From IMG/VR virus record IMGVR_UViG_3300042343_000261, positions 6,988 to 70,987 of that record: a stretch of DNA of 64,000 nucleotides. One strand, given 5' to 3'. The position numbers and the translations under genes were made by a program. The stretch is from a virus. This document shows positions 18,646 to 59,040 of the stretch, piece after piece. How positions within the stretch are numbered: the stretch's first letter is position 1; every line of letters begins with the position of its first letter. Under the pieces are notes generated by a model that saw nothing but the letters and a program-made list of their open reading frames with translations, did not search any database and was not told where the DNA came from.

Positions 18646-19076
18646 AAGATCAAATAATTTGCAGTGGTGCATTAATATACTCACAAGCTACTCATAGATT
18701 TCTTTTGATTCAAAAATCCTCAGGTAAACACCAAGGTACTTGGGGATTAGTTGGTGGCACTAACCTTGCTAACGAAAATCCATGGCAAGGTCTTACAAGA
18801 GAAATAGAAGAAGAAATTGGTTTTCTTCCAATCATTAAAAAAACACTACCATTAGAAAAGTTTGTATCTAACGATAGTGTTTTTAATTTTCATACATATT
18901 TCTGTTTAGTAGAAAACGAATTTGTTCCAACTCTTAGCGACGAACACATTGCATGGGGATGGTTTAGTTTAGTTGCTCTACCAAAACCTATACATCGCGG
19001 ACTAAATCTCAGTTTGCGTAATAAAATTATTCAAACTAAGATCCAAACCGTTATTGATATTATTGATAGTTTGTAA
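18627..19076 (+). CDS. Nudix hydrolase
   Basis: Nudix box GGTNLANENPWQGLTREIEEEIGF; SDEH..W.W. Confidence 0.9.
   Translation: MATGIVKDQIICSGALIYSQATHRFLLIQKSSGKHQGTWGLVGGTNLANENPWQGLTREIEEEIGFLPIIKKTLPLEKFVSNDSVFNFHTYFCLVENEFVPTLSDEHIAWGWFSLVALPKPIHRGLNLSLRNKIIQTKIQTVIDIIDSL
18780..19076 (+). repeat. 297-bp direct repeat, copy 1 (3' part of Nudix gene)
   Basis: Aligns without gaps to 58744-59040; about 33 mismatches by manual count. Confidence 0.95.
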
Positions 19077-19472
19077 GTATTTGATAATTTGTGTAGACCA
19101 GTAAACACTATGTTTACTGTCTACTCTAACATTAAAATCTACAGGAGGATGAAATAGACAATTAGTATCATTATACTTGCTAACAGATATAGTATCAACA
19201 AATACAGTAAAATCTGCATTAAATAGTTTCCTAATTTCGTTAGTAGGTGCAATAAAATCACAAATAACATAATTAGATTTAGAATTTTCAGCTAACTGTT
19301 TCATTCTACTACATTGTCTTAATCGTCCTTCTGTACTAAAATCCCAATCGTTGTATTGTTCTCTTATTATATCAGCATTAAACCATTCAACCGAATCTAA
19401 AAGTTTAACTAGCTCAGTTGCTAGAGTTGTTTTACCAGATCCAGGCAATCCCATTATTAAAATTTTCATCAT
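19002..19472 (-). CDS. cysC: Adenylyl-sulfate (APS) kinase-like protein
   Basis: IMGLPGSGKTTLA P-loop, NAD..R, DWDFS.EGR.RQ, VICDFIAP; last gene of an operon that begins with a sulfotransferase. Confidence 0.72.
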   Translation of the reverse strand: MMKILIMGLPGSGKTTLATELVKLLDSVEWFNADIIREQYNDWDFSTEGRLRQCSRMKQLAENSKSNYVICDFIAPTNEIRKLFNADFTVFVDTISVSKYNDTNCLFHPPVDFNVRVDSKHSVYWSTQIIKYLQTINNINNGLDLSLNNFITQTEI

Positions 19473-19975
19473 TCAGGTAAAACTGCATTTAATAAAAATA
19501 ATTGAGTTAGTTTAGTTGGTTCTAAACTATACCAGATCCAAGGTCTAATATAAATGTAATCATTCTTTTTTAAATTAATACTATTAACTGTTGACCATTT
19601 ACTAGGATCGTAACAATTATCCGCAATAAATGTATCTAATTTATCTATAACATCAAATACAGTTTTTACGGTATCTTGTTCATGGATTGTCAACACAGTA
19701 TCTTCCATTGCAACTACAACTAACCATAGTGAATGCTGATAAAAATGTTCTACATGAATTATATCAGATGGTTTTCTAAAAATACCTGTATCTTGTTGTA
19801 TAGTAACATCAGAATTAATTTCATGTTTAAAAAATTCTTGTAATTCAGCTGGAACATAATTGAAATTTATAATTTCTTCGCCAAATAATGTTCGTTCAAA
19901 TTCCATTGAAGACATTAACATTTGTAATTGTTCTGAATTATTATACAACCCAGAACAATGAATAAAATTTTGCAT
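19469..19975 (-). CDS. Hypothetical protein, possibly a degenerate 2OG-Fe(II)/cupin-like fold
   Basis: 168-aa ORF coupled to its neighbours; only weak resemblance to the fold. Confidence 0.4.
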   Translation of the reverse strand: MQNFIHCSGLYNNSEQLQMLMSSMEFERTLFGEEIINFNYVPAELQEFFKHEINSDVTIQQDTGIFRKPSDIIHVEHFYQHSLWLVVVAMEDTVLTIHEQDTVKTVFDVIDKLDTFIADNCYDPSKWSTVNSINLKKNDYIYIRPWIWYSLEPTKLTQLFLLNAVLPE

Positions 19976-19979
19976 ATTT

Positions 19980-22784
19980 TTACCTTTTATATGTACTTAA
20001 ATATTTAAAAAAGAAATCTCTTTCAGTTTCTTCATCTAGGACATAAAATTCAATAACCTCGCCATTAACATTTTGAAATGCTAATTTTTCTGGTAATTTA
20101 CCTTTATACGCGATATTATTGATAGCGCAATAACTATAAAAATGTTGCACTACACCTAAAGATAATCTGATAGTCCAATCATCGCCGCAATTTTTTAATT
20201 CTTTATGCCACATCTCCATTCCGCGTTCAAGCCAAGTAAAGTCAGGTTTTGGATGATCTGTTATAAATTTACTCCAATAATCAACTAAGATATAATGTTT
20301 AGCAAAAACTCTATCTGGATATGTTCTAACATTTTTATAAATTAAATCAGAATTTCTACCTATAGATTTTCTTTTTAATAATTCATGATTAGCTAAACCA
20401 TAATGTAAAATCCAAGCATAATCTTGCCAAAACATTTTACCTAAGAAATGCTCACCGTCTTTAGATGGATATTCATGCACAACACCGGTAAATCTAATTT
20501 TACCTCGTTTAAATAATCTATCGTGCATCACATCAACGTTAATACCCATTTTATGAGAATCAAGTGACATACATTGCTTTTGTTTTAGTAACATACCATC
20601 ATAATAATCGCTAGTAATGTACTTAAATAGATTTTTCCAACTTTCAACTTGTTCGTCGGCGTCAATCCAAAAGATATAATCTCCAGATGCTTGATCAATA
20701 GAATAATTTCTAGCTCTAGAAAAATTACCTAACCCATCTTCTTCTAACCATTCTAAATCATAAATTTTATCTGTATATTTTTCAACAATTCGTTTAGTAT
20801 CATCAGTAGAACCGGTATCAACGACAATAATTTCATCTACAAATCCATCTAACGATTTTAAACAACGAGAAATATTATCTTCTTCATTTCTAACAATTAT
20901 GCAAGCAGAAATAGATTTATATGGTCTAGTTTTCATCCATTTTTCGTTATAATCAATTTTACCAAATTCAATATTATCGCCTTTAGAAGAATTAAACCAA
21001 AAAGAAATATTGCTACACGGTTCGTTTCTTCTACCTAACACATTGGCAGATGAGTGAATTAAAGTAAAATCTATGTTTTTTAATAATTGTTTAATATCAG
21101 ATCTTTCAAAATGATGAACGTGATTAAGTTCTACTTTATTCATTGTCATATTATCCCACGGTCCTGTTGGAGTAGTAAAATAAAATAACGTATCAAGTTG
21201 AGCTAATTTAGTTACTGTATTAAGAAATTCGTCAGTATCCTCAATATGTTCCATTACCTCGCCAAGAATAACTACATCGGGTTTAATATCATAATTTAAA
21301 ATATTAAATACAGAATCGCAAATAAATTTTAATTGAGGATATTTAGATTTATACTTTTTTTCAACAAAATCTAACACAGGCTTATAAGTATCAACTAATG
21401 TCATTTCTGAAATATTAAGAGAAAATCGTTTCAGTAATGGTAATGATAATACACCATCATTACTTCCTATGTCAACAATTTTTAATTTTTTACTAGGAGC
21501 TTTTTTAATAATATCATCAACTAAATTTATTAGATGAGTACCCCTTTCATCTAACATAAAATCTTCGTCTGAGTTATAATCTTCTCTAACTAATACAACA
21601 TTTTTATTGTAATAATCAGCATTATCTAACAATTTTCTATATTTTTCATCTCCTGTTAATTTATAAGCAGCTACTATATCTGAATTATAAACTAACTGGT
21701 CTAAAATTTTAGATTTATATTTTTCAAATCTTTTATTAAACATAGAATCAATTTCTCTGTTCCAAGATTTGGCTACGTTTTGCCAAGAATATTTTTCAAT
21801 ATCTACTCGCGCCTTATCTACAGCTTGATCATACAAATCTTTATCTTGATATTTTTTTACTAATGATAAAAATTCATCAAAATATTCTTGTGTATCGTAT
21901 TTTGATTTAACTGTAGTTTGAGATTTAACAGTTTCTGATAATGCAAAATTATGTGTAGCAATAATCATACATTCATTATATTGAGCTTCAATAGCATTAA
22001 TACAACTAATTTCAGGAAAATCTGTTGGATATAGCATGTATGCGCAATTAGAAAGTAATTCATAATATTCGCGTTTAGGTAAATTACCTATCATTTTAAC
22101 ATTAGTTGAATACTCTAATAATTCTTCAACCTCATTATAAATTTTTTGAACTTCTTCCGGAGTTCCTAGTGTATGCTCATATCCGCATAAATGTAATATT
22201 GCATCAGGATTAATATCTAACACTTCTGGCCATATTTTTTCAAGTAGATATTTCAATCCTCGTTCGGGTCTAGAAGCATAGATATAATTATTTTTCTTTT
22301 CTTCAAATGATTTTTTTGTTGTTATAATTGACTGATCATAACCATTAGAAGTTTTCCAAATATAATTAGTTGGTTCAATAGTATAATTGTTAACAAATAA
22401 CGATTTATGATATTCACTTAAACAAAATACTCTATCTGCTACGCCCATAGCATCACGAAAATTATTAGAATCAATATCATGACACCAAAGAACGTTAAGT
22501 TTTGAATCTAATGGAACTGCTAGAAAATCTGTAAATCTACTTACAATTACAACATCAAATTGAGAAATATCATCTGCCATATATTTTTCTAATGGTCGAT
22601 AATCAACATTATCATAAATTCCAGGTTTATCGCATTTACAATAAACTGTTACTTCATGACCTAAGGCTGCAGTTTCTTTAGCCATATAGATCAAGGCTGA
22701 TTCTGACCCACCTAACGCTTTTTCGTAAACTGAATTACCATTAAATTCTAATCCAGCAGTTACAAAACAAATACTTTTATTCAT
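19980..22784 (-). CDS. Three-domain enzyme: GT4-like glycosyltransferase + SAM methyltransferase + GT2 glycosyltransferase
   Basis: GT-B: LGGSE, YASRPERGL, FPEISCINAIEAQ. MTase: VDIGSNDG, GEVMEHIED. GT-A: SACIIVRNEE, VDTGSTDDT, NFSRARN, WIDADE. Confidence 0.88.
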   Translation of the reverse strand: MNKSICFVTAGLEFNGNSVYEKALGGSESALIYMAKETAALGHEVTVYCKCDKPGIYDNVDYRPLEKYMADDISQFDVVIVSRFTDFLAVPLDSKLNVLWCHDIDSNNFRDAMGVADRVFCLSEYHKSLFVNNYTIEPTNYIWKTSNGYDQSIITTKKSFEEKKNNYIYASRPERGLKYLLEKIWPEVLDINPDAILHLCGYEHTLGTPEEVQKIYNEVEELLEYSTNVKMIGNLPKREYYELLSNCAYMLYPTDFPEISCINAIEAQYNECMIIATHNFALSETVKSQTTVKSKYDTQEYFDEFLSLVKKYQDKDLYDQAVDKARVDIEKYSWQNVAKSWNREIDSMFNKRFEKYKSKILDQLVYNSDIVAAYKLTGDEKYRKLLDNADYYNKNVVLVREDYNSDEDFMLDERGTHLINLVDDIIKKAPSKKLKIVDIGSNDGVLSLPLLKRFSLNISEMTLVDTYKPVLDFVEKKYKSKYPQLKFICDSVFNILNYDIKPDVVILGEVMEHIEDTDEFLNTVTKLAQLDTLFYFTTPTGPWDNMTMNKVELNHVHHFERSDIKQLLKNIDFTLIHSSANVLGRRNEPCSNISFWFNSSKGDNIEFGKIDYNEKWMKTRPYKSISACIIVRNEEDNISRCLKSLDGFVDEIIVVDTGSTDDTKRIVEKYTDKIYDLEWLEEDGLGNFSRARNYSIDQASGDYIFWIDADEQVESWKNLFKYITSDYYDGMLLKQKQCMSLDSHKMGINVDVMHDRLFKRGKIRFTGVVHEYPSKDGEHFLGKMFWQDYAWILHYGLANHELLKRKSIGRNSDLIYKNVRTYPDRVFAKHYILVDYWSKFITDHPKPDFTWLERGMEMWHKELKNCGDDWTIRLSLGVVQHFYSYCAINNIAYKGKLPEKLAFQNVNGEVIEFYVLDEETERDFFFKYLSTYKR

Positions 22785-22786
22785 AA

Positions 22787-23398
22787 TTAATTTACTCTCT
22801 TATAGGCTTTTTTATGTTTAGATATAGCAAATATTTCAAATCCGCCTGTTAACATTTTATCTTCAATTTGTTGATGATCGTAATATGGAATATCATCAAA
22901 TATTATAATTCCATTCATAGAGAGTCTAGGAATAAAAAAATCTGCTTCTAGCAATACGGCATCTGTACAGTGAGGACCGTCAATAAATACTAAAGCATAG
23001 TTGGATTCGATTGTTTTAACTTGATTATACACTGGAATACCGTCAGAATATCTAGAGAAAAATTCAGTATCTTCTAAATTAAAAAATTGAAAATTAAATC
23101 CTAAATCAGTTATATAAGAAAATAAATTAGGAATCGTTTCGTCTCTCATACGATTATTATAATCAAATTTTATAGCTAAATGCAAATCGCTAGAAGCATA
23201 ATCTATATTTCCGTAAGGATCAACACAAACAAATACTCTATTAGTATCTTCAAATCGTTCTAAAGAATCTGCGATTAGTATTGCAGATCCACCTTTTCGA
23301 GTCCCTAACTCTATTATATTTCCAAAGATATTATTTTTTGAAATATATTCACAAGCATCATTTAATATTTCATAATCTATACTATCAGTTTCAAACAT
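22787..23398 (-). CDS. Class I SAM O-methyltransferase (TylF/Methyltransf_24-like)
   Basis: IIELGTRKGGS, VDPYG, LVFIDGPH, GIIIFDD. Confidence 0.82.
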   Translation of the reverse strand: MFETDSIDYEILNDACEYISKNNIFGNIIELGTRKGGSAILIADSLERFEDTNRVFVCVDPYGNIDYASSDLHLAIKFDYNNRMRDETIPNLFSYITDLGFNFQFFNLEDTEFFSRYSDGIPVYNQVKTIESNYALVFIDGPHCTDAVLLEADFFIPRLSMNGIIIFDDIPYYDHQQIEDKMLTGGFEIFAISKHKKAYKRVN

Positions 23399-24821
23399 TA
23401 TATTTTTCCTTTAATACAGCTTTTAGTTCGTCATATACTTCATTCCAAATTTCCGGAGTAACTTGTCTAATTAACCTTACGTTTTCTCCATACCAACTAG
23501 AATTTGGTTTACCTTCGGCCCAGACATAATATTCCATGATAGGAATTAATATAATAACTTGTTTACCTAGCGCAGCCGCTGCATGTGCAACTGAAGTACA
23601 CGAAGTTATTACTAAATCTAGGTTATGGATTACACCTAGTAAATCTTCAAATGTACTTAACTCAAATTGCAAATCAACAACTTCATTATGATTTTCTAAT
23701 TGCGCTAACCCAACATCTCGTTGAATAGAATATAAACTCCAGTTATTGCCTTCTGGTAAGGAATTTATAACTTCTGTTAAATTAACGCTGCGATGTAATT
23801 CATGATCATATCTTGGATTGCCTGCCCATCGCAACCCAACTTTAAATTCTCCAGATAATTTATGTTTCTCAATATAGTCAGGTTTAGCTTGTAAATAAGG
23901 GCCGTACCATAAATCGTTAGCATCAATTCCTAATGTTTTTGGTAATGCCATCATTGGAGTCCAACAATCATAATCTTCTTTTTTATAGTCTGAAATATCA
24001 ATAATTTTTTCAAATGGTAAATGATTGTAAATTGTATGTACTTTATGAGTAGTCATAATAGAAACTTTCATACCAAGATCTCTTAAATGTTTTACAAATC
24101 TAACATTAATAATCTCGTCGCCAATGCCGCCTTCACCTACTATTAATATATGTAAATTTGGTTTTGGTTTACCGTTCCATTCAGGGATATCCCAAACTTT
24201 AGAATATGATCCAAATACATTTAACTTTCTACCAATGTAAAGGTGTTCCATACCTTTTTTAAAATCTCCATCTTGAATATAATGCACTCCAAGATTAAAT
24301 AAGATCGAATCCGCTTCTCGTTGATCGTATTTCCATAAATTTTCTTCCATTGATTTAACAATATCATAAGATTCTTGTTTTTTATTACACGCAAATAATG
24401 CAGCTGAATAATCTAATAGATAGCGATCATTATCTTGAATATTATCCATAACAAATTCATAATATTCTACAGATTTAGTTGGCTTATTTGCTGACAAATA
24501 AATTTTAGCTAAATTAGACTTAATTGCTACAGTTTGTTCAATAGCTTTAGATAGCGATAATGCTTTTTCGCCATATTCTATAGCAGTAACAAATCTTTTT
24601 GCTTTATCATAAGAATAACTATATAAATCATAACCTAAAATATCAAGAGGAACTATTTTATTTTTTTCAAATAGTTCCATTAAATTTACTATTTCGTCTA
24701 ATAAATCCGATCTTGATAAAATATCAACTGTTTGCTTTACTGCATCATAATCTGTAGCCATTATTTTCCAATTCCAAAATAAACTCGTATTCCGATGATG
24801 ATAATTTTTCTTCAGGAACAC
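23391..24821 (-). CDS. TPR-containing glycosyltransferase (GT9-like C-terminus)
   Basis: Helical TPR-like N-terminus; W.G...GEGGIGDEI...R, VGLRWAGNP, LDLVITSCTSVAHAAAALGK, W...SSWY. True start may be MATD at 24761. Confidence 0.8.
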   Translation of the reverse strand: MFLKKNYHHRNTSLFWNWKIMATDYDAVKQTVDILSRSDLLDEIVNLMELFEKNKIVPLDILGYDLYSYSYDKAKRFVTAIEYGEKALSLSKAIEQTVAIKSNLAKIYLSANKPTKSVEYYEFVMDNIQDNDRYLLDYSAALFACNKKQESYDIVKSMEENLWKYDQREADSILFNLGVHYIQDGDFKKGMEHLYIGRKLNVFGSYSKVWDIPEWNGKPKPNLHILIVGEGGIGDEIINVRFVKHLRDLGMKVSIMTTHKVHTIYNHLPFEKIIDISDYKKEDYDCWTPMMALPKTLGIDANDLWYGPYLQAKPDYIEKHKLSGEFKVGLRWAGNPRYDHELHRSVNLTEVINSLPEGNNWSLYSIQRDVGLAQLENHNEVVDLQFELSTFEDLLGVIHNLDLVITSCTSVAHAAAALGKQVIILIPIMEYYVWAEGKPNSSWYGENVRLIRQVTPEIWNEVYDELKAVLKEKYNV

Positions 24822-25563
24822 AAATAAAATTTATATCCAAAACAAAAGTTTTATAACCTAACGATTCAATTAACGTTTTTAGTTCAGTTGCACCGTTATA
24901 TTGCTTATAATATTCAATATACATTAGTGGTCTGTGCTTGTTAATTGTAGCAACAGCACCATTAACTACGTCTAGTTCCATCCCTTCAACATCAACTTTA
25001 ATAATAGAAATATTTTCTATATCTTTAAAGTATTCATCAATAACAATTTGATCAACAATTTCGCCATTACCAAAATCTAGATCTTGGCCAACATCATCAA
25101 ATTCTCCAGTAAGACCTACACTACCAAAACTAGCCGGTTTATAATAATCTACTTTAGGTACAGTTATCGGTTTAGTAGACGATCCGACTGCAGTTTTTTC
25201 CGCATATACGTTATCTACGCTGTTTAATGCTAAGTTACCACATAGCATTTGATAGATCTGACGTTGCGGTTCAAATGCATACACAGTTCCGTTTGCTGGT
25301 AAAATTGCATCAGCAACTTGGACAGAGAACGCGCCGATGTTAGCACCAACATCAATCACTGCAGGATACTTTTTATCTTTAAGATACTGGCGTAAGATCC
25401 ACATTAATTCCATATTTTCTGAACCCATGTTCATTAAATGATATCCAACTCCGGGAAAATTTTCTGTAGGATTATAATCAAATCGGTTTACTATCATCAT
25501 ACCAAACTCAGTTGGTATTATAACATTTCTTCTCGGTTTTCCTATCATTTCATGTTCTTCCAA
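24745..25563 (-). CDS. FkbM-family methyltransferase
   Basis: VIDVGANIG, VYAFEPQ, IKVDVEGME..V..GA...I...RP. Confidence 0.9.
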   Translation of the reverse strand: MEEHEMIGKPRRNVIIPTEFGMMIVNRFDYNPTENFPGVGYHLMNMGSENMELMWILRQYLKDKKYPAVIDVGANIGAFSVQVADAILPANGTVYAFEPQRQIYQMLCGNLALNSVDNVYAEKTAVGSSTKPITVPKVDYYKPASFGSVGLTGEFDDVGQDLDFGNGEIVDQIVIDEYFKDIENISIIKVDVEGMELDVVNGAVATINKHRPLMYIEYYKQYNGATELKTLIESLGYKTFVLDINFICVPEEKLSSSEYEFILELENNGYRL

Positions 25564-26324
25564 AAATCCATTTCTTCTAAATGGTTAAATAAATCTGGCG
25601 GAAGAATTGTTTGACGTTCTTTAAATTGAACTTTATTTCTAACGTGATGTAACCCTTTAATGTTCATATCAAAATCAAATTCGTCGTAATCACCAACTAC
25701 ATTATCAAAATCATGATCAAACCAAGATTCTCCAATAAATTCATAAATTTTCTTCATGACTAATTTAGGATTCTTAGCCAATTGATCATATTGCACTACC
25801 ATAACATTTTCTTTTTTTGCACCAAATAACGCTTCTTTAACACCATTATATGCAAACCCAACAAATGAACTAGGGTCTGTTAAATACTGTGCTCTAGAGT
25901 AAACAGACATTCCTGCTCCTTCCGGAAACATAGACGGAACATCGTATGGATTTTTAGCAAATAAAGTTTCAAATGAATCTACAATCCACGGAATTGATCG
26001 TATACAAACAATAATTTTTGCATCTGGATATAAATCAGCCAATAACGGCGTTAGATAAGTCCAACCTCGATTAGTATCAAACACTACGTCATTTGAATCT
26101 TTATAGTAAGTTTCTGTAACAGAATGGATTAATTCTTTGCGTTTTTCTGGAGGGCATTGGAATCTATATCCGCCCTGTGATTGACTTTCTTGAATAATAG
26201 CTCGTGTAAATCTAGCAAGTGGACCAGAAATACTTGCTCCAAAATTTGGATTTTGGTGTAAAATGGAGGAAAGAAGGGTTGTTCCAGAACGAGGCAACCC
26301 TGAGATAAAATGAATTTTTTGCAT
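25545..26324 (-). CDS. PAPS-dependent sulfotransferase
   Basis: 5'-PSB loop FISGLPRSGTTLL; 3'-PB-like IIVCIR.......S; YDQL..NP...M..IY.FIG. Confidence 0.88.
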   Translation of the reverse strand: MQKIHFISGLPRSGTTLLSSILHQNPNFGASISGPLARFTRAIIQESQSQGGYRFQCPPEKRKELIHSVTETYYKDSNDVVFDTNRGWTYLTPLLADLYPDAKIIVCIRSIPWIVDSFETLFAKNPYDVPSMFPEGAGMSVYSRAQYLTDPSSFVGFAYNGVKEALFGAKKENVMVVQYDQLAKNPKLVMKKIYEFIGESWFDHDFDNVVGDYDEFDFDMNIKGLHHVRNKVQFKERQTILPPDLFNHLEEMDFWKNMK

Positions 26325-26356
26325 ATTGGCCTTTTTAAATAGTTTAATAAAACATA

Positions 26357-26385
26357 ATTTTACTATACTTAGTTCAAAAAGTCAA
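26357..26385 (-). promoter_or_regulatory. Sigma70-type promoter heading the modification operon
   Basis: TTGACT-N17-TAAAAT upstream of the sulfotransferase ATG. Confidence 0.65.
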
Positions 26386-26388
26386 GTG

Positions 26389-27021
26389 TTATTTTTTTTC
26401 TAAATCATATTCACGTAATTCAACTGTTGTTTGAATAGCATTAATTTCAGCAGTTTTTGTAGATTCCCAATTAAAACAATCTTGAATATGCGTCATTATA
26501 GAATTTACAATTAATTGTAAATCAGTTTTATTAATTACAAAAAACCCTTCTGGGAATTTCCATTCAGCAGAGTAATCATCATTCGTTAATAATAATGCTT
26601 GAGAATACATTACTCTAGTTTCTCTATCAGTATACAAAGTTAATATTTTTCCATTAATATCTCTTGTAATCGGAGTTGTTTCTTTAATCCAACGTAAGTT
26701 TGCCAATGCGGCTTTTAAATTAACTTTTATAGATTCTATAGGAAATTCTTGCGCGTAAAATTCTGCTATGTGATTATTAGATTCATCATAATAGAATTTT
26801 GGTCCAGCTATTTGATCAAATGTGTCATTAAGTTCTGTTGGATTAACAATTTGCGTTGGAACTAATTTTAAAGATTCATTAAAAATTAATGGTTCGCTTG
26901 GCGGATGTTCTATAGTAACTCGTTGATTTAATTCTTCAGAAACAAAGTGTTCAAAATATGCTTGATGCCAATCTCTCGGACCTGTTATTATATTTTCGTT
27001 TTTTAATAATGTGTATGCCAT
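26389..27021 (-). CDS. Tail fibre assembly-type protein (DUF4376-like)
   Basis: LA..RW.KE...TDRETR...WKF...HIQ.CF.WE pattern; located at the end of the fibre cluster. Confidence 0.6.
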   Translation of the reverse strand: MAYTLLKNENIITGPRDWHQAYFEHFVSEELNQRVTIEHPPSEPLIFNESLKLVPTQIVNPTELNDTFDQIAGPKFYYDESNNHIAEFYAQEFPIESIKVNLKAALANLRWIKETTPITRDINGKILTLYTDRETRVMYSQALLLTNDDYSAEWKFPEGFFVINKTDLQLIVNSIMTHIQDCFNWESTKTAEINAIQTTVELREYDLEKK

Positions 27022-27030
27022 TTTTTAACC

Positions 27031-28155
27031 TTATATTATTTTTAATGCTAATGTATAATACTGACCAGCACTAACTTGTCTCCAGTCACTTAAAGTTCCG
27101 ACTTGCGTTGGGCTGAATATATTGGTGGTATTTGATAATCCTAGTTGGCCATTGCCATTATACCCCCAGGTCCATAATGTTCCGTCTGTTTTGATCGCTG
27201 CTGTATAAAATACCCCGCCAGCAACTTGACTCCAACTACTTAAAGTGCCAACTTGTACTGGGCTACTTCTGTCAGCCGTATCAGATAACCCTAATCCTCC
27301 AAAACTATTATATCCCCAATTCCATAATGTTCCGTCTGTTTTAATCGCTGCTGTATGCATATATCCAGCAGCAACTTTGCTCCAATTGGACAAAGTTCCA
27401 ACTTGTACTGGGCTTGATCTGTGCGCGGTATCCGATAGTCCTAGTTGACCACTATTATTATAACCACACGCCCATAATGTTCCGTCTGTCTTACTTGCTA
27501 TTGTGTGCTTATATCCACAAGAAACTTGATTCCAGTTACTTAAAGTTCCAACTTGTACTGGACTACTTCTATTTGTTAAATCAGATAATCCTAGTTGACC
27601 TGTATTATTTAAACCCCAAGTCCATAATGTGTTATCTGTTTTAATCGCGGTTGTGTGCATTCCACTCCCGCTAGCAACTCGACTCCAGTTACTTAAAGTT
27701 CCAACTTGTACTGGACTACTTCTATTTGTTAAATCAGATAATCCTAAGTTACCTTGACCATTATAACCGCAAGCCCATAATGTTCCGTCTGTCTTAATCA
27801 ATGCTGTATGATACTTTCCAAGAGCAACGTTACTCCAGTTACTTAAAGTTCCAACTTGTACCGGGCTTGATCTAGCAACTGTATTTGATAATCCTAATGC
27901 ACCAAAAAGATTATAACCCCACGCCCATAATGTTCCGTCTGTCTTAATTGCTACTGTATGTCGGTATCCAACAACAACTTGATTCCAGTTAGATGCAGTC
28001 CCGATTTGTACCGGACTACTTCTATTTGTTAAATCAGATAATCCTAGTTGGCCAGCATCATTATTCCCCCAAGCATACATATTCCCAGTTGCCTTAAACA
28101 TAGCCGTAGACATATATCTTGTTTGTAATTTTGTTCCAGTTACTTTATAAGTCAT
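27031..28155 (-). CDS. RCC1-repeat beta-propeller protein (~7 blades)
   Basis: 50-aa repeats [19 protein letters not shown]....RSSPVQVG. Confidence 0.92.
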
Positions 28156-31088: not shown

Positions 31089-32540
31089 TTATATTCCGTA
31101 AACTACTTTTGTAGGTAAAGGTGTTGTATCTACTAACCCTAATTGACCATACCCATTATCACCCCAAGTCCATAATGTTCCGTCTGTTTTAATTGCTGCT
31201 ACATAAAACATTCCAGAATAAATTTGACTCCAGTTACTTAAGGTTCCAACTTGTACTGGGCTTGATCTATTGACTTGATCAGATAACCCTAATTGACCAT
31301 ACACATTATTTCCCCAAGTCCAAAATGTTCCATCTGTTTTAATCGCTGTAGTCAGGCGATATCCGCAAGCAATTTTACTCCAGTCACTTAAAGTTCCAAC
31401 TTGTACTGGGATTGATCTAGGCGCGGTATCCGATAATCCTAATTGACCATAAAAATTATAACCACAAGTCCATAATGTTCCGTCTGTTTTAATTGCTGCT
31501 GTATGATAATACCCGCAAGAAATTTGACTCCAGTTACTTAAAGTTCCGACTTGCACTGGGCTGGATCTATTTGCGGTATCAGATAACCCTAAGTTTCCAT
31601 ACACATTCCACCCCCAAGCCCATAATGTTCCATTTGATTTAATCGATGCTGTATAATATCGCCCACAAGCAATTTTGCTCCAGTTACTTAAAGTTCCAAC
31701 TTGTACTGGGCTTGATCTATGAGTTAAATCAGATAATCCTAATGCACCAAAAAGATTTTGCCCCCAAGTCCATAATGTTCCATCTGTTTTAATTGCTGCT
31801 ACCAACTCTGATCCGCTAGCAATTTTACTCCAGTTACTTAACGTTCCAACTTGTACTGGACTTGATCTATGAGTTAAATTAGATAATCCCAATTGACCAT
31901 AAGAATTAATCCCCCACGTCCATAATGTGTTATCTGTTTTAATTGCCAATGAATGTTGAAATCCACCAGCAATTTTACTCCAGTTACTTAAAGTTCCGAC
32001 TTGTACTGGGCTTGATCTATTGGCAGTATCCGATAACCCTAATGCACCATAACCATTCCAACCCCAAGTCCATAATGTTCCGTTTGGGTTGATTGCTGCT
32101 GTATGATACAAACCTCCACTAACGATACCCCAGTTACTTAAAGTACCAACTGGTACTGGGGTGTATATGGTTGATGTAATAGCAAATGCAGTCCATGCAA
32201 GAGATTGAGGAGTATTTTCTAAAGCTCCAAAGGCTCCCCGAATATACGTTTTTGAAGTATTAGCTCTATCTGAAAATATTATTGCGCTCGGTAATACAGC
32301 AACTATATCGGCAAAATTATCTAAATCAAGTTTTGGAACATTAAATGTTCCAAAACTTGAATTAAATGCATTACCTACATTTAACGCGTAATATCCAGAA
32401 GAACTAATATTATTTTGACCAAATACAACAGTTTTTCTACTAGAAATTTTTAACGTTTCTATTGGAAAATAATTTATATCATCTGCTTTAATATATGTAT
32501 AATCTAAATCAACAGAATTTAGTTTATAATTAGAACTCAT
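31089..32540 (-). CDS. RCC1-repeat protein, 483 aa
   Basis: Unique N-terminus followed by 7 RCC1 repeats with exact 150-bp period. Confidence 0.92.
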   Translation of the reverse strand: MSSNYKLNSVDLDYTYIKADDINYFPIETLKISSRKTVVFGQNNISSSGYYALNVGNAFNSSFGTFNVPKLDLDNFADIVAVLPSAIIFSDRANTSKTYIRGAFGALENTPQSLAWTAFAITSTIYTPVPVGTLSNWGIVSGGLYHTAAINPNGTLWTWGWNGYGALGLSDTANRSSPVQVGTLSNWSKIAGGFQHSLAIKTDNTLWTWGINSYGQLGLSNLTHRSSPVQVGTLSNWSKIASGSELVAAIKTDGTLWTWGQNLFGALGLSDLTHRSSPVQVGTLSNWSKIACGRYYTASIKSNGTLWAWGWNVYGNLGLSDTANRSSPVQVGTLSNWSQISCGYYHTAAIKTDGTLWTCGYNFYGQLGLSDTAPRSIPVQVGTLSDWSKIACGYRLTTAIKTDGTFWTWGNNVYGQLGLSDQVNRSSPVQVGTLSNWSQIYSGMFYVAAIKTDGTLWTWGDNGYGQLGLVDTTPLPTKVVYGI

Positions 32541-48400: not shown

Positions 48401-51400
48401 ACCGGTATATCCAGTTCCTCCAGATAATATTGATGATGATTTAGTAACAGTTGTATTGTTATATAACGCATTAAACCCGACTGCAGTGTTATTAGAACCA
48501 GCAGTATTAGTATACATACTAGAATGACCGGCAACTACGTTGTTATTGCCAGTTGTATTAGAAAGAAGACTATTAGCACCAACAGAAATATTATAACCTC
48601 CTTCTGTATTAGAGAAAAGACTTTGATATCCAAGTGCTTGATTATATTGGCCAAGTGTATTAGCATACAAACTTAGTGCCCCAACTGATACGTTATAATT
48701 ACCAGCTGATATACTAGAAACAGGAATAAGGAATCCGGAACCCCCGCCACCAATTAACGATGCAGTTGCAGTCATAACAGTGCTAGTATCTTTAAATCCA
48801 GAACCGTTACTTACTAACGTGCAGGAAGTAACTTGACCACCTGATACTGTTATATTTGCAGTTGGATATGTTGTTGCAGCTGATCCAGACACAGGTGTTA
48901 ATTGAACATTATAATAAGTTCCAGTGCCGGTATATCCAGAGCCACCGGTAATTGTTCCAAAACTACTAACACCAGTTGTATTTTTGTACAGACTTTGAAA
49001 ACCAATTGCAATATTAGAAGCGCCAGTAATATTGCTTTGAAGACTATAAGAACCAATAGCTGTATTATAAATGCCGGTTGTATTTTTTTGAAGACTACTA
49101 TAACCGCTAGCAGTATTGTTACCACCAATTGTATTATTTTGAAGACTACCAAAACCAATAGCAGTGTTAGAACTGCCGGACGAAAACGAGCTAGCTAAAA
49201 TACTAAATCCAGAACCGGTGCCACCAATTGATGCCGAATCAATTGTAAATGCGGTACTTGATACAGTTGAGTAAGCATAGGAACCAGGTGTAACTAATGC
49301 ACATGCACTTACGTTGCCGGTTGCATTAACTGTTATATTTACTATTGGATATGACCCAAACACTGCACCATATAGACCTGATAACGTTACATATTTATAT
49401 GTACCAGGTGTATACCCGGTGCCACCGGTAATTGTACCAAATGCGCCAATACCGGTTGTAGTACTGTACATTGCAAGTGCTCCAATTGCAACATTGCCGG
49501 TACTAGCCGTAGCTGTATACATACTTTGATACCCAATTGCTGTATTATTATTTGCAACTGTATTATTAAATAACGCACTTGCACCTACTGCAGTATTAGA
49601 ACTTCCAATATTAGCATATAAACTTTTATACCCAACAGCTACATTTGAGTCACTAGATGCTACTGACCCAATAGAAATTAGCAATCCGGATCCAGTTCCG
49701 CCAATTGACGCTGAGTCTGCACTCATAACAGTACTAGAATTTTTAAATCCAGTCCCATAGGTAAGTAGTGTACACGATGTAACTGCACCATTTGTTACTG
49801 TTATGTTAGCAGTTGGATATGTAATTGCAGTTGATCCAGAAACATATGTTAACTGAACATTAGTGTACATTAGTGTAGCGGCTGTCGGAGTATACCCAGT
49901 TCCGCCTGCAGATATTGTAATTGAAATTACTCTTGCAGTAGTACTAAAAAGACTTTGAGTACCAACAGCAGTATTCCAATTGCTAGTTGTGTTAGTGGCA
50001 AGTGCAGAATAGCCTACTGCAGTATTAGCACTTCCAGTTGTATTAGAATTAAGTGCCGTATCACCTACTGCAGTGTTGTCTGCAACGCCTCCGGCACCTT
50101 TGCCAACAATGATACTGTTAATGCTCGCATCCCCACCTAATGTTAACACATTAGTAAACGGGTTAAATCTAAAACCAGAAGTAACTACATTTGCAATAGT
50201 TAATAATCCGGTAGTTGCAGAGCTAAATATTGGATAAAATGTAGCATTTGTAGTAGTTGCTGTTACAGTTGCTCCGGGGGTACCGGTACCTAGTTGTCCC
50301 CCTGCACCTATCGTTACATACCCAGATGAACCAACAGCTGGTAATTTAATTGTACCATTTGCAACAATTGTACCTGTACTAGCTCCAATATTAATTGTAG
50401 CAGTTGTAATATTAGTCCATTCATTAATAGTACCAGTTGTTACATCAGATGTTAAATTAACGGTACCTGCAGCAGTACCTGCAATTTTTAATACATTACC
50501 TGTAATTGCACCACCTACTGTAGTAGTTGATAGTGTAGTAGAATTTGTTCCTAATCCAATTGTAGTAGTACTTGTACCGCCAACTGTAACACCTGTTGCA
50601 GATGCTAACACTTGCGCGTTATCTAATACAGTTACATTGTTAATCTTATACGATTTACCTGTAGCAATGTTCCAGTGTTCACTAGATGTCCAATTAGTAT
50701 TAGTAGAATCCCAAATAATTGTTTTATTAGTAGCACCGGTGAGTGTAATACCGCCACCATTTGCAGTTACATCAGTTGCGCCACCAATCGATAATGTTGC
50801 TCCAGGTGCAGAACCTGTACCTGTAAATGCTGCACTTAACGTGATTTGCGTAGCACTATCAATTGATAATACGGTTACACTAGCTGGCAAAGTAACCGTA
50901 CCGGCTCCACTTAATACAGGTGAAACTGCTGATCCGACTATAATGTTAGCAGTACTTGATAATGCAGAAACAACTGCTGATCCTGCAGTAATACTACCAG
51001 TCGGTGTAACTGCTGCCACTGATCCCAATTCTAAGTTTTTATCATCAACCGTAATCGTTGATGAATTTACTGTCGTTGTAAAACCATTAACTGTTAAATT
51101 TCCGCCAATGGTTAAATTAGTACCAACATATAACTGTTTAGCAATAGCCGCACCACCTGCTACTGTTAATGCGCCACCGGTGGTGTTATTAGTTGCGTCT
51201 GTAGTATATGGTAATTTTAACCCACCGTAAATTGTTGTAGCAATTACAGACGAATTACCAATTACAGTAGTGTTATTACCTAACCCAACTGCTGTATACC
51301 CGATTACAGTTTCGTTAGTAACTCCAGAAGCTGCTGATGCTTTTGTATTATAGCCAATATATATTGAGTTGTTAACTTCAATAACAGGAGTAGTTCCGTT

Positions 51401-52119: not shown

Positions 52120-52120
52120 G

Positions 52121-55100: not shown

Positions 55101-58100
55101 TTAAAATCACCTAATTCATTTGTACCAGAGGTATAAACTCGACCTGCAAGTTCTTGTACTTGTTCAAATGCAGGAACAGTTTGTCCGCCATTTTGAGGTA
55201 ATGCGTTATAGTCAATACCGGATCCGGCATATTCCCATGTATGTCCAGATGAGTTAACAACACTCGGACGATGAAAAAATATTTTTTTACCAATTAATGC
55301 TGTTACATTTTGCAATCCACCGCCTGTTATAGTTGGTTTAATCGAAAATGTACTAGTGTATAAATCAGTTCTTAAAGAAACTGAGCTAATTAACACATTA
55401 ATAACAAATGATCCTGCTTTAGTAATTCTAGAGTTAGGAATGAATAATGTTTGGGTTGGTGTAGATCCATTTTGTGGTATTAAATAATCAATACTTACAA
55501 TTAATGTGTTAGGGGCTGTAAATTTGTATACATACGCACGGGTAGGAGAACCGCTTACAGTTCCTTCAATAACTTGTCCGGTAGTAAATACAAATGCATT
55601 TGATATCAATGTAAGAGTTTGATATTTGTTGTGCGACTGTACTACTGAATCAACACATAGTTCATAATCTTGTTTAGTAAACGAATGAGTTCCTATGCTA
55701 AGAGACGTAATATCAATTAAAATTGACAATCCTTCGTCTTGTGCTAACTTAAATTGAGTTGGACTAATATATGCAATGTAATAATCACTACCGGTAAATA
55801 AACCACCTAACGGTACATTACCGTTACTATTGTATGTTACTGATTCGTTATTTAAAAAACCATGTGGCGATGAAAACGTAAACACATTTGGAGGAACTTC
55901 AGTACTTAATGTAACTGCAGTTGTTGCATTAAATGAAACACTTATATAACTCGATGATTGTAATTTATAAGTAGATGTTACATCAGTGCTAGAGTACAAT
56001 GGATTATTGTTTATAAAATCAGTAACAAACCCTGCAATTGCAGATTTATCAGTTACTAACATAGTGTATTGTGCAATAGATACAGGAGATGCCCAAGCAG
56101 TACTAGGTGAAATGACTGACGGTGTATTTCCAGAATTAATAGTATTGTGGATTTCTTGAAATCTCGCTTTAGCAAAAATAACTGCATCAGTTGAGGCAGG
56201 GTTTAAATTAACTTGTTGAATATCAGTATTGCCTGTTGACTTTGTCCAACTTGATGTGTTGTTAGTAATAATATATTCAATTATATCACGTAATCGAAGT
56301 TGAACTGCAAGTGCTGCTGGTTTTTCGGCAGCAAGTTCGACAAATGTTCCAAACGAATAATATGCTCGAGCAGCAACTATTGTTTCTAAATTACCGCCAG
56401 TAAGAATATCATATTGTATTGCATCTATAATATATCCAATATCTCGTGTACATTTATTTTTCTGTAATACAGACAAACCATTCCATACAGATGTAAATGC
56501 AGATTCCATATAGGCAGATATTTCAGATTGTACGAACGATTTATTTGCAGCAATCAATACAGCAGCATTTGCAAATCCGGAAGTAATAGTCGGTGGACTT
56601 GGCATTACTATAGTCGGTAACGGGGAAATAAGACCAGTTGTACTGCTACTAGACCCATCCCTTACTAAATTTATAATAATATCCATGTTATCACTAACTG
56701 ATGTTACTAGTACAGGGTCTCCGCCGATGTTATTAACTAAGTAATTTTTTAAATAAGTAAATGCATTAACAGTAGCTGCACGTTGAGCACCTAATACTAT
56801 AGATGCTTGTGCTTCAAAATATGACATAGCTGCTTTTATTGATCTAAAGTTACAATTAAACATCATATCATAACCAATTGCATCAATGACGTAGCCGATA
56901 TCACGCTGGCAAACATCAACTTTGTAAACTAATTCGTTATTACTTCTAAAACGAATAACAAATTCGTTAACTGGGCCGCCTTCGCGTAATGTACCAAGTG
57001 AGGTAATTGTAGTAGAAGTTCCTGATGACCCTGAACTTGCAACAAATCCTTTGTCAAACGTAAATGCATAAGGTGAATATCCCGACGATCTTAACGCATA
57101 CTTACCAAAGTTAGTTGCAGAGTTAGTAATAGACGCGTAACCGCCACTTTGTGTATACACACCGTTTAATAAAAATAATTGGAAACATGATACTATCTGT
57201 ACATAAGCATCGTTAATAACTCTCCAGCCAGTTCCGCCAAAACTAACCATAGTAAATGCACTACCAATCATTGATTTACACTGAACTGGCGCTATTCCTG
57301 CAGGATTTAATTCAACTTCAGAAATGTTGTCCGGAACGTTTGGAGAAGAAACTTTATTACCGTCAACTAAACATCCATTTCCGCCTAAAAAGCTAAGTAT
57401 AGATACTGTTAAAATGTACGGCGATAATGTCATTATTGATTTAGAAGTTGGTAAGTTTGTATAGCCAACCCTGCTTACAGTAGTGTCTGCAACATCATCA
57501 AATGCAATTGCATAATCCCATGTAAACGACGGAACACCTACTGCATTTACTCCATCTCTAAATGTAAAGTTATTCATGTAGCAGCCGTTTCTAACTCTAA
57601 ACATATCTTTATGTGCATTTAGCGGACGTACAATACATGATCTTAAACTATCACCAACTAAGCTAACAAAATCAGGAACAATAATTGGGTTGTCTTCAGA
57701 ATAATCACCGGATGCTAATTGTACAATAACACGAGAGCCATTAACAACTTTAGCCGAAGTGTATACTAAACTAGCTGCAATTTGCATCGCTCGTTTAATT
57801 GTTTTTACTGGTTGAGAAATCCCGTCGTTTGCATCGTTACCAAATTTAGCAGAAACAAATATACGATTTCCGCCTTGATCAAAATTAACAAATTCAAGTT
57901 TTCCGTCTCCGGTGGCTGATAACAGTTGACCTGGATTACCTATATCATTAGGTAATTCTAATGAATAGTTATTTAAAATAGAAGCAGGTGACTTAATACT
58001 AATATAGTTACTACCATTAGCTGGATCTTCGTATAATCTAATTTCTCCATCTTCGATGCTAATCTCGGTAAATTTACCTGTACTAGGAGTAGTTGATCCA

Positions 58101-58621
58101 ATTGGAGTATTTTGAATACTATCTGCAATAAATGGAACATTACTTGTCCAAGCACCTGTGCTCATATTCCATACGATAGTTTTATTAGTAGTACCTTTTA
58201 AAGTAATACCGCCCATATTAGCTGTTGAGTCGCTAGGAAAATCAACTGAACCTAATTCAATATTTTTATCGTCAACGCTTATTGTAGTTGAATTAACAGT
58301 TGTAGTAGTACCGTTTACTGTTAAATTACCTTGAATAGCAACATTGTTGTTGAATACAGTATTGCCAGATGATGAGCCAATGTTAAGACTAGTTGCTGCT
58401 CCTGCAAAATTTACAGTAGTTGCTGCTCCTGCAAAATTTACAGTAAGCGCAGAGGTGTTAAGTAAATCAAAACTAGTGCTAGTAGTGGTTAATGATGTTA
58501 AAATATTAGGACTTGTTGATAAAACAAGACTGCCGGTCCCAGTTGATGTAGATGTTCCAGTACCACCTACATTAACAGGTAATATTCCACTTTTAAGTAA
58601 ACTTGAAAGAGTAATCGCCAT
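52121..58621 (-). CDS. Giant virion structural/fibre protein (2166 aa)
   Basis: LPVNVGGTG fibre motifs; FVS...GND.NDG...P.KTI..A beta-helix lid; C.RDIGY.IDA repeats; HG...G..VTY repeats. Confidence 0.75.
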   Translation of the reverse strand: MAITLSSLLKSGILPVNVGGTGTSTSTGTGSLVLSTSPNILTSLTTTSTSFDLLNTSALTVNFAGAATTVNFAGAATSLNIGSSSGNTVFNNNVAIQGNLTVNGTTTTVNSTTISVDDKNIELGSVDFPSDSTANMGGITLKGTTNKTIVWNMSTGAWTSNVPFIADSIQNTPIGSTTPSTGKFTEISIEDGEIRLYEDPANGSNYISIKSPASILNNYSLELPNDIGNPGQLLSATGDGKLEFVNFDQGGNRIFVSAKFGNDANDGISQPVKTIKRAMQIAASLVYTSAKVVNGSRVIVQLASGDYSEDNPIIVPDFVSLVGDSLRSCIVRPLNAHKDMFRVRNGCYMNNFTFRDGVNAVGVPSFTWDYAIAFDDVADTTVSRVGYTNLPTSKSIMTLSPYILTVSILSFLGGNGCLVDGNKVSSPNVPDNISEVELNPAGIAPVQCKSMIGSAFTMVSFGGTGWRVINDAYVQIVSCFQLFLLNGVYTQSGGYASITNSATNFGKYALRSSGYSPYAFTFDKGFVASSGSSGTSTTITSLGTLREGGPVNEFVIRFRSNNELVYKVDVCQRDIGYVIDAIGYDMMFNCNFRSIKAAMSYFEAQASIVLGAQRAATVNAFTYLKNYLVNNIGGDPVLVTSVSDNMDIIINLVRDGSSSSTTGLISPLPTIVMPSPPTITSGFANAAVLIAANKSFVQSEISAYMESAFTSVWNGLSVLQKNKCTRDIGYIIDAIQYDILTGGNLETIVAARAYYSFGTFVELAAEKPAALAVQLRLRDIIEYIITNNTSSWTKSTGNTDIQQVNLNPASTDAVIFAKARFQEIHNTINSGNTPSVISPSTAWASPVSIAQYTMLVTDKSAIAGFVTDFINNNPLYSSTDVTSTYKLQSSSYISVSFNATTAVTLSTEVPPNVFTFSSPHGFLNNESVTYNSNGNVPLGGLFTGSDYYIAYISPTQFKLAQDEGLSILIDITSLSIGTHSFTKQDYELCVDSVVQSHNKYQTLTLISNAFVFTTGQVIEGTVSGSPTRAYVYKFTAPNTLIVSIDYLIPQNGSTPTQTLFIPNSRITKAGSFVINVLISSVSLRTDLYTSTFSIKPTITGGGLQNVTALIGKKIFFHRPSVVNSSGHTWEYAGSGIDYNALPQNGGQTVPAFEQVQELAGRVYTSGTNELGDFKVGNFITAYNRTGNITFKNRVDIQELSVLKLSFSDIAISSISTDIGLGENEISGPSNNALSTQLATWSYLQDRLGDFIDKGVSTNSIPGAIVQLNSVGQINTDLIPPQRTVTSVVTYGYSSRLRAADDIPAVEFLAGDTSSEEYQSISVSLSSLVTASDGDIVVQANTNAIGIIKGNYVDSSVIIIASDYDTFKTPFTTISSLDTLTIGSTITTAYCMTISAVANVVENHILRTTNVSQYVILPNTSSYSYTISSVAKILRYNNVVYVTTAAPHGLTSVSHIKTTSSIAEYNGISYPSIISTTRFKFNKTGVSTTSTTFTAYQGAIVNAAVNSTTTTGTVTSSNLTGTINNGDYVFGGDIPPGSIITNVNMGVNPREFTITFPELSSIPENLISTLTFITPINATGTVRSIITAVNNHADGEVTELKSGVITTVNNLTIVGGSSYVSGTYIHVPLISSTGTGSGAVANITVTLGSVTTVDITYGGIGYAIDDILSASNTYLGGTGSLFNVKVSSVETRVYLDIISGVAFIGSEASPDFVADNLSITKTLTLTDITTKSFNATSIDIGGDVNYVLNQITIVGHGLSTGDSITYDSSFNPPISGLIALSYFVKKISNDVIELYTDYTASSANKVIFGSSSSGIHFFYLHVVNLDNDRFYAPAHGITNGTAVTITGSSLPSSYGHVIPDRETFFVGSVTTNTFTLHTLRSDALQSINGSIIAAINITAIGSGTCTFITDQVNIIGVINTSSRVASSWGLIATSSIDAANIISGVIDTTRLAVSGAANSNTFLRGDSSWSPAVSSIQSTNAALTITGSGTGAKYGAVTVDMVSVDKTGGVGLFSTLGAASFNTTQFSVGTGDSLLSGQVQLKNGVLDAATLDSHDSTYFLDPTHFSSAIPVSKGGTDITTYTTGDILYASGSTVLSKLAIGTNGAILTVSSNVPAWVNVLPATHGGTGLSSAGTAGNVLTSDGTTWVSAPLNLLSQLHAYSLAYTGI

Positions 58622-58648
58622 TTATAAATCCTTTGTTATAGTTGTAAG

Positions 58649-58656
58649 TATTTATC
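58649..58656 (-). promoter_or_regulatory. Late-promoter-like GATAAATA heading the fibre block
   Basis: Same octamer at 2810, 4676, 9129, 61773 (minus) and 14806, 15656 (plus), each just upstream of a start codon. Confidence 0.65.
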
Positions 58657-58743
58657 TGTATGGCGTTACTGTATTTCGTTAGCGGTAATTGTTATAGGTA
58701 ATTTTGGTTGTTTTCTTTTTGTAAATCCATTTTCTATAAAACC

Positions 58744-59040
58744 CCATGGCAAGGTCTTACTAGAGAAATAGAAGAAGAAATTGGATTTCTTCCAGTCATT
58801 AAAAAAACACTACCGTTAGAAAAATTTGTATCTAACGATAGTGTCTTTAATTTTCATACATATTTTTGTTTAGTAGAAAATGAATTTGTACCAACATTAA
58901 GTGATGAGCATATTGCTTGGGGTTGGTTTAGTTTAGTTGCACTACCGAAACCAATACATCGCGGGTTAAATCTTAGCTTGCGTAACAAGATTATCCAAAC
59001 TAAGATTCAAACTGTTATTGATATTATTGATAGCCTCTAA
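58744..59040 (+). pseudogene. 5'-truncated second copy of the Nudix gene (direct repeat copy 2)
   Basis: 97 of 98 aa identical to the C-terminal part of 18627-19076. It lacks the first 51 codons, including half of the Nudix box, and the only in-frame start is a TTG in unrelated sequence. Confidence 0.85.

Follow-up and report, generated by a model that had tools for sequence, protein, structure and literature searches.

In the model of phage mosaicism associated with Hendrix and Juhala, novel joints lie at places of little or no homology and near gene borders, the needed genes stay intact, and the gene stumps produced at the joints later decay. More specific systems place a gene and a truncated copy of it around a block of DNA. 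Prophage e14 lies between icd and icdC, a pseudogene of the C-terminal part, and a working chimera results when the prophage excises, as summarized in PMC13626634 with reference to Hill et al. 1989; according to the account in the same source, a deletion between diverged paralogous direct repeats produced a chimeric gene at cpsG in the long-term evolution experiment (LTEE). T4-type phages possess hyperplastic regions, described in PMC2839356 as variable genes between conserved core blocks, in which direct repeats of the promoter early stem-loop (PeSL) type, placed at the borders of modules, bring about insertions, deletions and replacements. Here, we analyzed a window of 64,000 nt (bases 6988-70987 of the 70,987-bp viral record IMGVR_UViG_3300042343_000261, rated ~20% complete), in which an intact Nudix hydrolase gene and a second, 5'-truncated copy of it enclose a large block of fiber genes. 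With a probability of roughly 0.8, we regard the second copy as what is left of a second Nudix allele after a single unequal (illegitimate) recombination event between two related freshwater jumbo phages of ~360 kb; the relic would be very young and without function.

The two copies (18780-19076 and 58744-59040; repeat family D17) are 297-bp direct repeats that align without gaps at a spacing of 39,964 bp. They differ at 33 sites (88.9% identity), of which 29 are third and 4 are first codon positions, and a single residue (I>V) distinguishes the translations. The gap-free repeats with their spacing, about 33 substitutions and one residue change had been described in a first-pass annotation of the window, together with the abrupt start of copy 2 lacking a native 5' half, and were confirmed by alignment and a repeat finder. 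The comparison of non-synonymous and synonymous divergence (dN and dS) that it had proposed gives, by the Nei-Gojobori method, 30 synonymous and 3 non-synonymous differences (dS 0.80, dN 0.013, ratio ~0.016), the latter count of 3 arising because paths are averaged over two-step codon changes. Copy 1 constitutes the last 297 nt of the intact gene (18627-19076, plus strand, 149 aa; PF00293, 57.2 bits vs a curated cut-off of 21.1), whose product covers positions 7-122 of the 134 positions of the Pfam NUDIX profile and hence the full domain. Copy 2 (plus strand) starts with CCATGGCAAGG at codon 52 of 149, comprises codons 52-149 plus the stop, misses the 5' third of the gene and aligns to profile positions 43-122 of 134 only. 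Judged from its sequence, copy 2 is a gene fragment and no member gene of the Nudix family; the annotation of 58708-59040 should be named accordingly. The edges of homology are sharp, with 19/60 matching nucleotides in the left and 17/60 in the right flanking 60 nt, and the right edge is the Nudix stop codon. Exactly two copies of the repeat exist in the entire 70,987-bp record, and the pair is the only long-range repeat reported by the repeat finder that is not internal to fiber or RCC1 genes. Perfect matches between the copies reach 23 nt at most, followed by matches of 20 nt.

A second stump, overlooked in the first-pass annotation, abuts the left edge of copy 2. Read on the minus strand from 58741, the sequence translates to FYRKWIYKKKTTKITYNNYR followed by a stop, i.e., the last 20 codons of a second gene of the family that we name after the gene at 59623 (relic at 58679-58741, minus strand). 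The intact family member in the window (59623-60375, minus strand, 250 aa, phrog_7084) ends with FYRKWIYQKKTTDITYL and a stop (59623-59676), the counterpart of the relic. When 2.9 million viral contigs were scanned for a 25-mer taken immediately to the left of copy 2, the single match was in locus L180, in which the 25-mer forms part of the 3' end of a 59623 homolog; in all relatives checked (L004, L007-L010, L180), the element seen in the relic is the 3' end of such a homolog. The relic represents a different allele from the window's own gene, the end of which matches at 32/36 nt, vs 35/35 and 40/43 nt for L180/L094. Within the window, a 35-mer of the relic with up to 7 substitutions allowed occurs only at the relic and at the end of the intact 59623 gene. 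Between the start of the adjacent 2166-aa gene and the stop of the relic lies a spacer (58622-58678) that would be native to one parental type, P1 below. The junction itself consists of two unassignable C residues (58742-58743), and both presumed parents would carry AAAA-N-CC at this point (AAAAACC in L180, AAAACCC in the Nudix gene of L007). Microhomology at the joint appears plausible from these motifs, although it is not demonstrated. The 30-mer across the junction had no match in other viral contigs, in a search that may pass over near-identical records. Two truncated genes on opposite strands abut at 58741/CC/58744, while intact counterparts of both are located in the window at 18627-19076 and 59623-60375, the latter 0.9 kb to the right of copy 2, in the expected order of Nudix, 59125 and 59623. 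Two abutting stumps of different genes argue for one unequal crossover between differently arranged relatives and not for insertion into a target site.

The proposed event would have involved two parents infecting the same host. Parent P1 would have had the order gp15-like gene, Nudix, ~40-kb fiber block and 59623 module; this order of block and then module is found in the relatives G003 and G011, with ~31 kb in between. Parent P2 would have had the gp15-like gene, Nudix, 59125 and the 59623 module with no intervening block, the order seen in the loci L007-L010. P1 would have been joined to P2 at a short A4NCC-like patch, the breaks lying in the 59623-family gene of P1, 20 codons from its end, and at codon 52 of the Nudix gene of P2. 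The recombinant would then descend from P1 to the left of the joint, including the intact Nudix gene and the block, and from P2 to the right. The extra stretch provided by P2 would be 58744-59676 (933 nt), and since it amounts to the Nudix stump plus the 59125 gene, the net gain relative to P1 would be ~1 kb instead of a 40-kb insertion. Import of a patch with a second homologous crossover further to the right would give the same picture, indistinguishable from a single crossover. The synonymous-only divergence would have accumulated while both alleles were intact in separate lineages. The crossover itself, the co-infection and the direction of the event are what we infer from the two relics, their joint and the gene orders of relatives.

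Both arrangements are present among these relatives. A search with the Nudix protein yielded 396 confirmed loci in viral contigs, from which the best 80 were fetched and all open reading frames (ORFs) of the window mapped on them; many of the 80 have short flanks. Following an intact Nudix gene, L007-L010 carry homologs of 59125, 59623, 60375 and 61108 in window order, the first of them starting 19 nt after the Nudix stop, and L004 has the same module genes in another order, together 5/80 loci. A kinase homolog is located downstream of Nudix in 18/80 loci, within 1 kb in 14 of them, and is often followed by a sulfotransferase and fibers, resembling the left end of the block; Nudix and kinase are adjacent in L027-L036, L043, L048, L050 and L051. 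In the other 57/80 loci, neither the module nor the kinase gene set appears within the available sequence. What follows the Nudix stop differs widely among relatives, and by this comparison the region downstream of Nudix is a hypervariable fiber locus. A search with the 59623 protein gave 10 loci. In G003 (176 kb), ~31 kb separate Nudix from the module in the same relative orientation as in the window, and there is no Nudix fragment; G011, the 35-kb contig behind L019 and L096, is arranged likewise, again without a fragment.

A single Nudix copy was found in 5/5 large records and 21/21 further Nudix-bearing records, the exceptions being L015-L017 and L018. At 7749-14166 of L015, and in the same way in L016 and L017, a full Nudix gene is followed by fiber genes of 1453 and 332 aa and then by a decayed Nudix remnant abutting a kinase gene. 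This remnant starts near codon 8 and carries 6 inserted nucleotides; the middle of the gene has been deleted between two GATTCAAA-like patches. The 3' flank of the kinase gene in L015-L017 is nearly identical to window positions 19077-19116. In L018, the intact gene is followed at a distance of 46 nt by a diverged Nudix fragment (10493-10711; codons 70-145, 34% identity), which includes an in-frame TGA, as read by eye; next comes a Gly-rich fiber-like gene on the other strand. With breakpoints at codons 52, ~8 and ~70, the relics of the window, of L015-L017 and of L018 represent three independent events.

The record is a metagenome assembly and short-read contigs break inside the repeat; the two copies might thus have been brought together by an assembly chimera of two co-occurring strains, so that no real genome would hold both. 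Window positions 58200-59600 occur in 24 lake-water metagenome runs from 24 studies, 18 of which contain at least half of the sampled words of this 1.4-kb stretch. Three of the 24 runs were flagged as possible sources; four unflagged ones (X4, X5, X14 and X20) were compared over 56500-61500 at 90% likeness using Logan contigs. Error-free contigs cross the joint in X4 (57106-58773) and X5 (56500-58772), extending 30 and 29 nt beyond the junction, so that reads containing the joint, and with them junction-spanning 31-mers, must exist in both runs. These contigs end 29-30 nt into the stump because the 31-mer graph must branch where other Nudix alleles share the sequence. Contig depth agrees on the left and right of the junction in three runs (X4, 8.53/8.3; X5, 17.2/19.5; X14, 4.1/4.2); stretches of X14 lacking contig cover carry no evidential weight. 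Moreover, the joined sequences are non-homologous and share at most 7 nt, which we judged too short for the k-mers of an assembler. In favor of a chimera, many Nudix alleles co-occur in the same samples at much higher depth (up to ~430-500; Nudix bins of ~440-500 in X4). The loose ends at positions 58744 and 58747 come from 5' halves of other Nudix alleles, among them copy 1 itself in X5. Weighing both sides, a chimera is hardly credible, and the junction, which recurs in independent lake metagenomes, is no assembly artifact. The presence of many Nudix alleles in one sample also means that there is opportunity for co-infection. Among the contigs listed for the four runs, none connects the 5' half of a Nudix gene with 59125 and the exact allele of copy 2, contigs being blind to rare forms.

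In X20, a contig of low depth continues past 58741 with 40 letters, of which 35/40 resemble, by eye, the body of the 59623 gene in L180. This gives a hint that the P1 arrangement exists in that sample. A joint in X20 from 58741 to 61105 (40 letters in between; depth 4.4, side 45, likeness 90) was considered as a variant devoid of 58742-61104; this was dropped after L180 had been found, and the joint is now read as a relative in which a 59623-family gene runs past 58741, its right-hand match being doubtful.

The age of copy 2 can be judged from its relation to other alleles. Its nucleotides 1-146 are 100% identical to the intact gene of L007, whereas the last 151 nt reach only ~90% identity to the best fetched alleles, which implies that the Nudix alleles are themselves mosaics. 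Compared with 62 sequences (61 intact gapless genes and copy 1; 39 distinct segments), copy 2 has 0 private bases, and its protein is identical to the 98/98 C-terminal residues of L003-L006. Pairs of intact alleles exhibit the same combination of high dS and tiny dN, e.g., dS 0.66 and dN 0.004 for L003 vs copy 1. Copy 2 therefore looks like a working allele, and its synonymous-only divergence would predate the truncation, because intact allele pairs carry the same signature and no base is private to copy 2. These observations support the suggestion of the first-pass annotation that the two 3' ends come from two functional alleles, both of them intact in function until recently. By the same comparison, the stump is too young for decay, while the older stumps of L015-L017 and L018 have decayed.

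An undecayed stump might instead have been kept by selection, either as a 110-aa protein from the TTG at 58708 or as an antisense or regulatory element in the minus-strand fiber operon. The open frame at 58708-59040, the lack of private substitutions and the lack of any amino-acid change vs L003-L006 would suit such a role. Yet copy 2 is devoid of profile positions 1-42 of the Nudix fold and of what we take to be the first 9 residues of the Nudix box, and contains no ATG anywhere. Promoter-like sites in 58300-59700 are at shuffle level (7 vs a mean of 6.4), comparable relics in L015-L017 and L018 did decay, and in view of the 146-nt identity to L007 youth alone explains the lack of decay. We consider selection on the fragment highly improbable.

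The first-pass annotation proposed that the 40-kb block could be a cassette open to exchange or excision, which integrated into the Nudix gene together with a replacement 3' end for it, much like e14 in icd, and which can be lost via the repeats. The geometry fits, as an intact gene and a 5'-truncated 3' duplicate with almost only synonymous differences flank the block; Nudix relics recur in two further lineages (L015-L017 and L018), and the blocks downstream of Nudix vary widely among relatives. The expected deletion product, an intact Nudix gene beside the next module, does exist in the form of the empty-site-like orders of L004 and L007-L010, but these are equally expected as the parental arrangement. 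The cassette model does not predict the relic of a second gene abutting copy 2; this stump of the 59623 family at the far side of the junction speaks against the entry of a block with a replacement 3' end of its target gene. No breakpoint shared by independent genomes, such as an att core, was found among the 80/396 loci seen, the breaks lying at codon 52, ~8 and ~70. G003 and G011 have block and module with no relic, two near-complete relatives (G001, 372 kb with terminal repeats, and G002, 356 kb, the largest found) have one Nudix copy only, and contig depth is equal across the junction in X4, X5 and X14.

The observation that no recombinase is visible in the window holds for more than the window. 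Matches to tyrosine (PF00589) or serine (PF00239) recombinases were found in 0/3 records, i.e., the own 71-kb record, which represents ~20% of its genome, and the near-complete G001 and G002; control searches were positive in 14/14 and 12/14 control genomes. A RecA-family gene is present in 2/2 near-complete relatives, so that general recombination is available. The longest stretch of perfect identity, 23 nt, is about as short as efficient homologous exchange allows; the repeats could therefore mediate loss of the block, but such losses should be rare. Altogether, an excisable or exchangeable cassette is very unlikely, and a single unequal crossover between relatives remains our preferred explanation.

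Several observations weigh against a crossover of this kind. The exact parents are unsampled, with the last 151 nt of copy 2 at ~90% identity to any fetched allele and the 59125 homolog of L007 at 41%. A 59623 gene directly against a gene of the 2166-aa type, as required in P1, occurs in no fetched relative, the contig of X20 being the only hint. The joint has four C residues, where a crossover inside A4NCC would predict three. The contigs of X4 and X5 fall 1-2 letters short of the 31 nt demanded for a counted bridge. The undecayed stump fits recency, which by itself is compatible with selection on the stump as well. Finally, the 80/396 Nudix loci seen, many with short flanks, may miss codon-52 relics elsewhere.

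A broader interpretation, which we put forward as tentative and rather unlikely, is that in this group of lake jumbo phages the 3' edge of Nudix serves as a preferred recombination anchor, where fiber modules are gained, swapped and lost by unequal crossovers between co-infecting relatives with no dedicated recombinase. Breaks introduced by nearby homing endonucleases would perhaps trigger such crossovers, with a piece of Nudix duplicated each time, and the diverged direct repeats would then allow an occasional loss of the whole 40-kb host-range block. The three relics (window, L015-L017, L018) would be traces of cassette gain and loss at the population level. A gene resembling HNH homing endonucleases with NUMOD3 (14875-15660, plus strand; Pfam NUMOD3, E 8e-34) is located 3 kb upstream of Nudix, between adaptor and structural genes. 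It varies among relatives, being present, e.g., in L003, L015, L017, L027 and L029 and not at this place in L005, L007 and L009. We infer that it may stimulate local recombination.

The enclosed block (19002-58621) encompasses 22 co-directional genes for fibers and glycan modification, from the kinase-like gene to the 2166-aa protein (start 58621), according to the ORF list and Pfam scans. Every ORF of at least 80 aa in this interval that was taken as a gene lies on the minus strand, in line with the single minus-strand unit of the first-pass annotation. The block encodes an APS-kinase-like P-loop protein, a 934-aa glycosyl/methyltransferase, further methyltransferases, a sulfotransferase and a DUF4376 protein, together with four RCC1-repeat proteins, a fiber with S74 chaperone, three LamG lectin-like proteins and giants of 850, 693, 2097 and 2166 aa. 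At 19002-26324 (minus strand), the APS-kinase-like protein, the sulfotransferase and several glycosyl- and methyltransferases are grouped beside the fiber genes, which suggests sulfated or methylated glycan modification of the virion or of host surface molecules. The kinase-like gene (19002-19472, minus strand) overlaps the 3' end of Nudix by 75 nt, tail to tail, as it also does in L030 and L031; in other relatives, the two are separated by a gap of 17-977 nt. The four RCC1-repeat proteins (374, 978, 483 and 1059 aa) adjoin each other at 26971-35355 (minus strand) and consist of 30-40 copies of a 150-nt unit with 60-87% identity. After them, the three LamG paralogs follow at 36777-40431. Three giant fiber genes have a 94-nt segment in common (42081-42174, 51017-51110 and 58244-58337; 71-77%). 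The N terminus of the 2166-aa protein matched 422 loci in viral contigs, from which 80 were kept; most of these share only a common fiber anchor domain (aa 24-164). The best match, L100 (64% over the full length of the protein), was rejected as a guide to the P1 junction, as it has another fiber gene upstream.

To the right of copy 2, the module starts with the 134-aa gene 59125-59529 (minus strand), which has no Pfam hit and lies between Nudix and the 59623 homolog like its counterpart in L007-L010, to which it is 41% identical. Searches of viral contigs and metagenome contigs returned no confirmed relative of the 59125 protein, and no contig with a full gene identical to copy 2 beside 59125 was found. 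Likewise, a 26-mer across the stop of copy 2 had no match in metagenome contigs. Beyond the intact 59623 gene, a DUF6065 protein (60375-61094, minus strand; Pfam) and a 2OG-Fe(II) oxygenase (61108-61707, minus strand; Pfam) belong to the part of the module that is collinear in L004, L007-L010 and L090-L099, and the minus-strand genes after copy 2 also include a glycosyl/methyltransferase. At 63634-64000, a 33-nt tandem repeat in 8 copies with up to 95% identity reaches the very end of the record, and the assembly probably stops there because of it.

With the largest relatives at 372 and 356 kb, the source of the window is a jumbo phage of ~360 kb, and the runs containing 58200-59600 are lake-water metagenomes. 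In GC content, the block (35.1%) does not stand out from the sequence to its left (35.5%) or to its right (31.8%). Conserved virion genes lie to the left of Nudix: tail sheath, tube, adaptor, a terminase gene in two pieces and, directly upstream of Nudix, a gene for a T4 gp15-like tail sheath stabilizer (17167-18645, plus strand; PF16724, E 3.6e-28). Among the 80 loci mapped, the gp15-like gene adjoins Nudix in every related locus reaching upstream, and gp15 as well as a 477-aa structural protein are conserved upstream of Nudix wherever a locus extends that far; the gp15-like gene marks the conserved side of the boundary. By protein search, the nearest cultured relatives of the gp15 homolog belong to the jumbo phages Phosso, Atu_ph07, SCTP-2 and the PA5oct group (29-37% identity); in phages of the PA5oct group, a gene next to it is annotated as MutT/NUDIX. 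When the DNA of both flanks was searched against cultured phages, the outcome was either nothing or no more than 75 nt of gp15 shared with PA5oct-like phages, and a close cultured relative is thus absent.

Further to the left, the large terminase subunit is distributed over two minus-strand ORFs, 4697-5623 (positions 434-629 of the TerL PHROG) and 2816-3928 (positions 626-861), with a GIY-YIG and NUMOD3 endonuclease-like ORF (3891-4685) between the pieces; this could represent a split gene or an intron-like insertion. A small ORF among the tail genes (7320-7760, minus strand) has a TnsA-like endonuclease N-terminal domain (E 2e-21).

Compared with the systems described above, the window shares with e14 (and phage 21) in icd the sequence of intact gene, block and 5'-truncated homologous 3' copy at the far end, as far as these are portrayed in PMC13626634. 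In that account, e14 excises by its own SOS-induced site-specific system, in contrast to the window with its variable breakpoints, its second stump at the joint and no integrase or resolvase found. As in the cpsG case outlined there, homologous recombination between the two 3' copies of Nudix would remove 40 kb and result in a gene that is chimeric yet intact; unlike in that case, the deletion product was not observed in the contigs of the four runs, and perfect identity between the copies extends over no more than 23 nt. The T4-type hyperplastic regions, as presented in PMC2839356, have the idea of repeat-mediated module shuffling in common with our locus, whereas the repeat in the window is a piece of a coding gene and not a regulatory cassette. 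A PeSL-type promoter-terminator cassette was not found at the junction, 58300-59700 containing 0 terminator-like sites in addition to the promoter-like sites at shuffle level. The "moraphages" of PMC12619734, with genomes of up to 307 kbp, were set aside as a comparison, since Nudix is not mentioned in that paper. A narrow literature search found no paper treating jumbo phages, illegitimate recombination and gene remnants jointly, from which we claim no absence.

The scar lies where the conserved gp15-Nudix genes give way to the hypervariable fiber region, and it is an unusually clean new example of a known, ordinary kind of event. With stumps, joint and both parental orders visible, it offers an unusually readable snapshot of giant phages rebuilding their host-range loci and, for phage ecology, points to exchange among co-occurring lake jumbo phages at this border. 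It also cautions that a direct repeat with synonymous-only divergence around a large block need not mark a mobile element, because an unequal crossover adding only ~1 kb looks the same. The best fit for the joint is provided by the mosaic junctions of the Hendrix and Juhala model. What distinguishes it from typical mosaic joints is that both stumps and both parental orders are still recognizable, and that it is found in an uncultured lake jumbo phage of ~360 kb, at the edge of a very large fiber locus.

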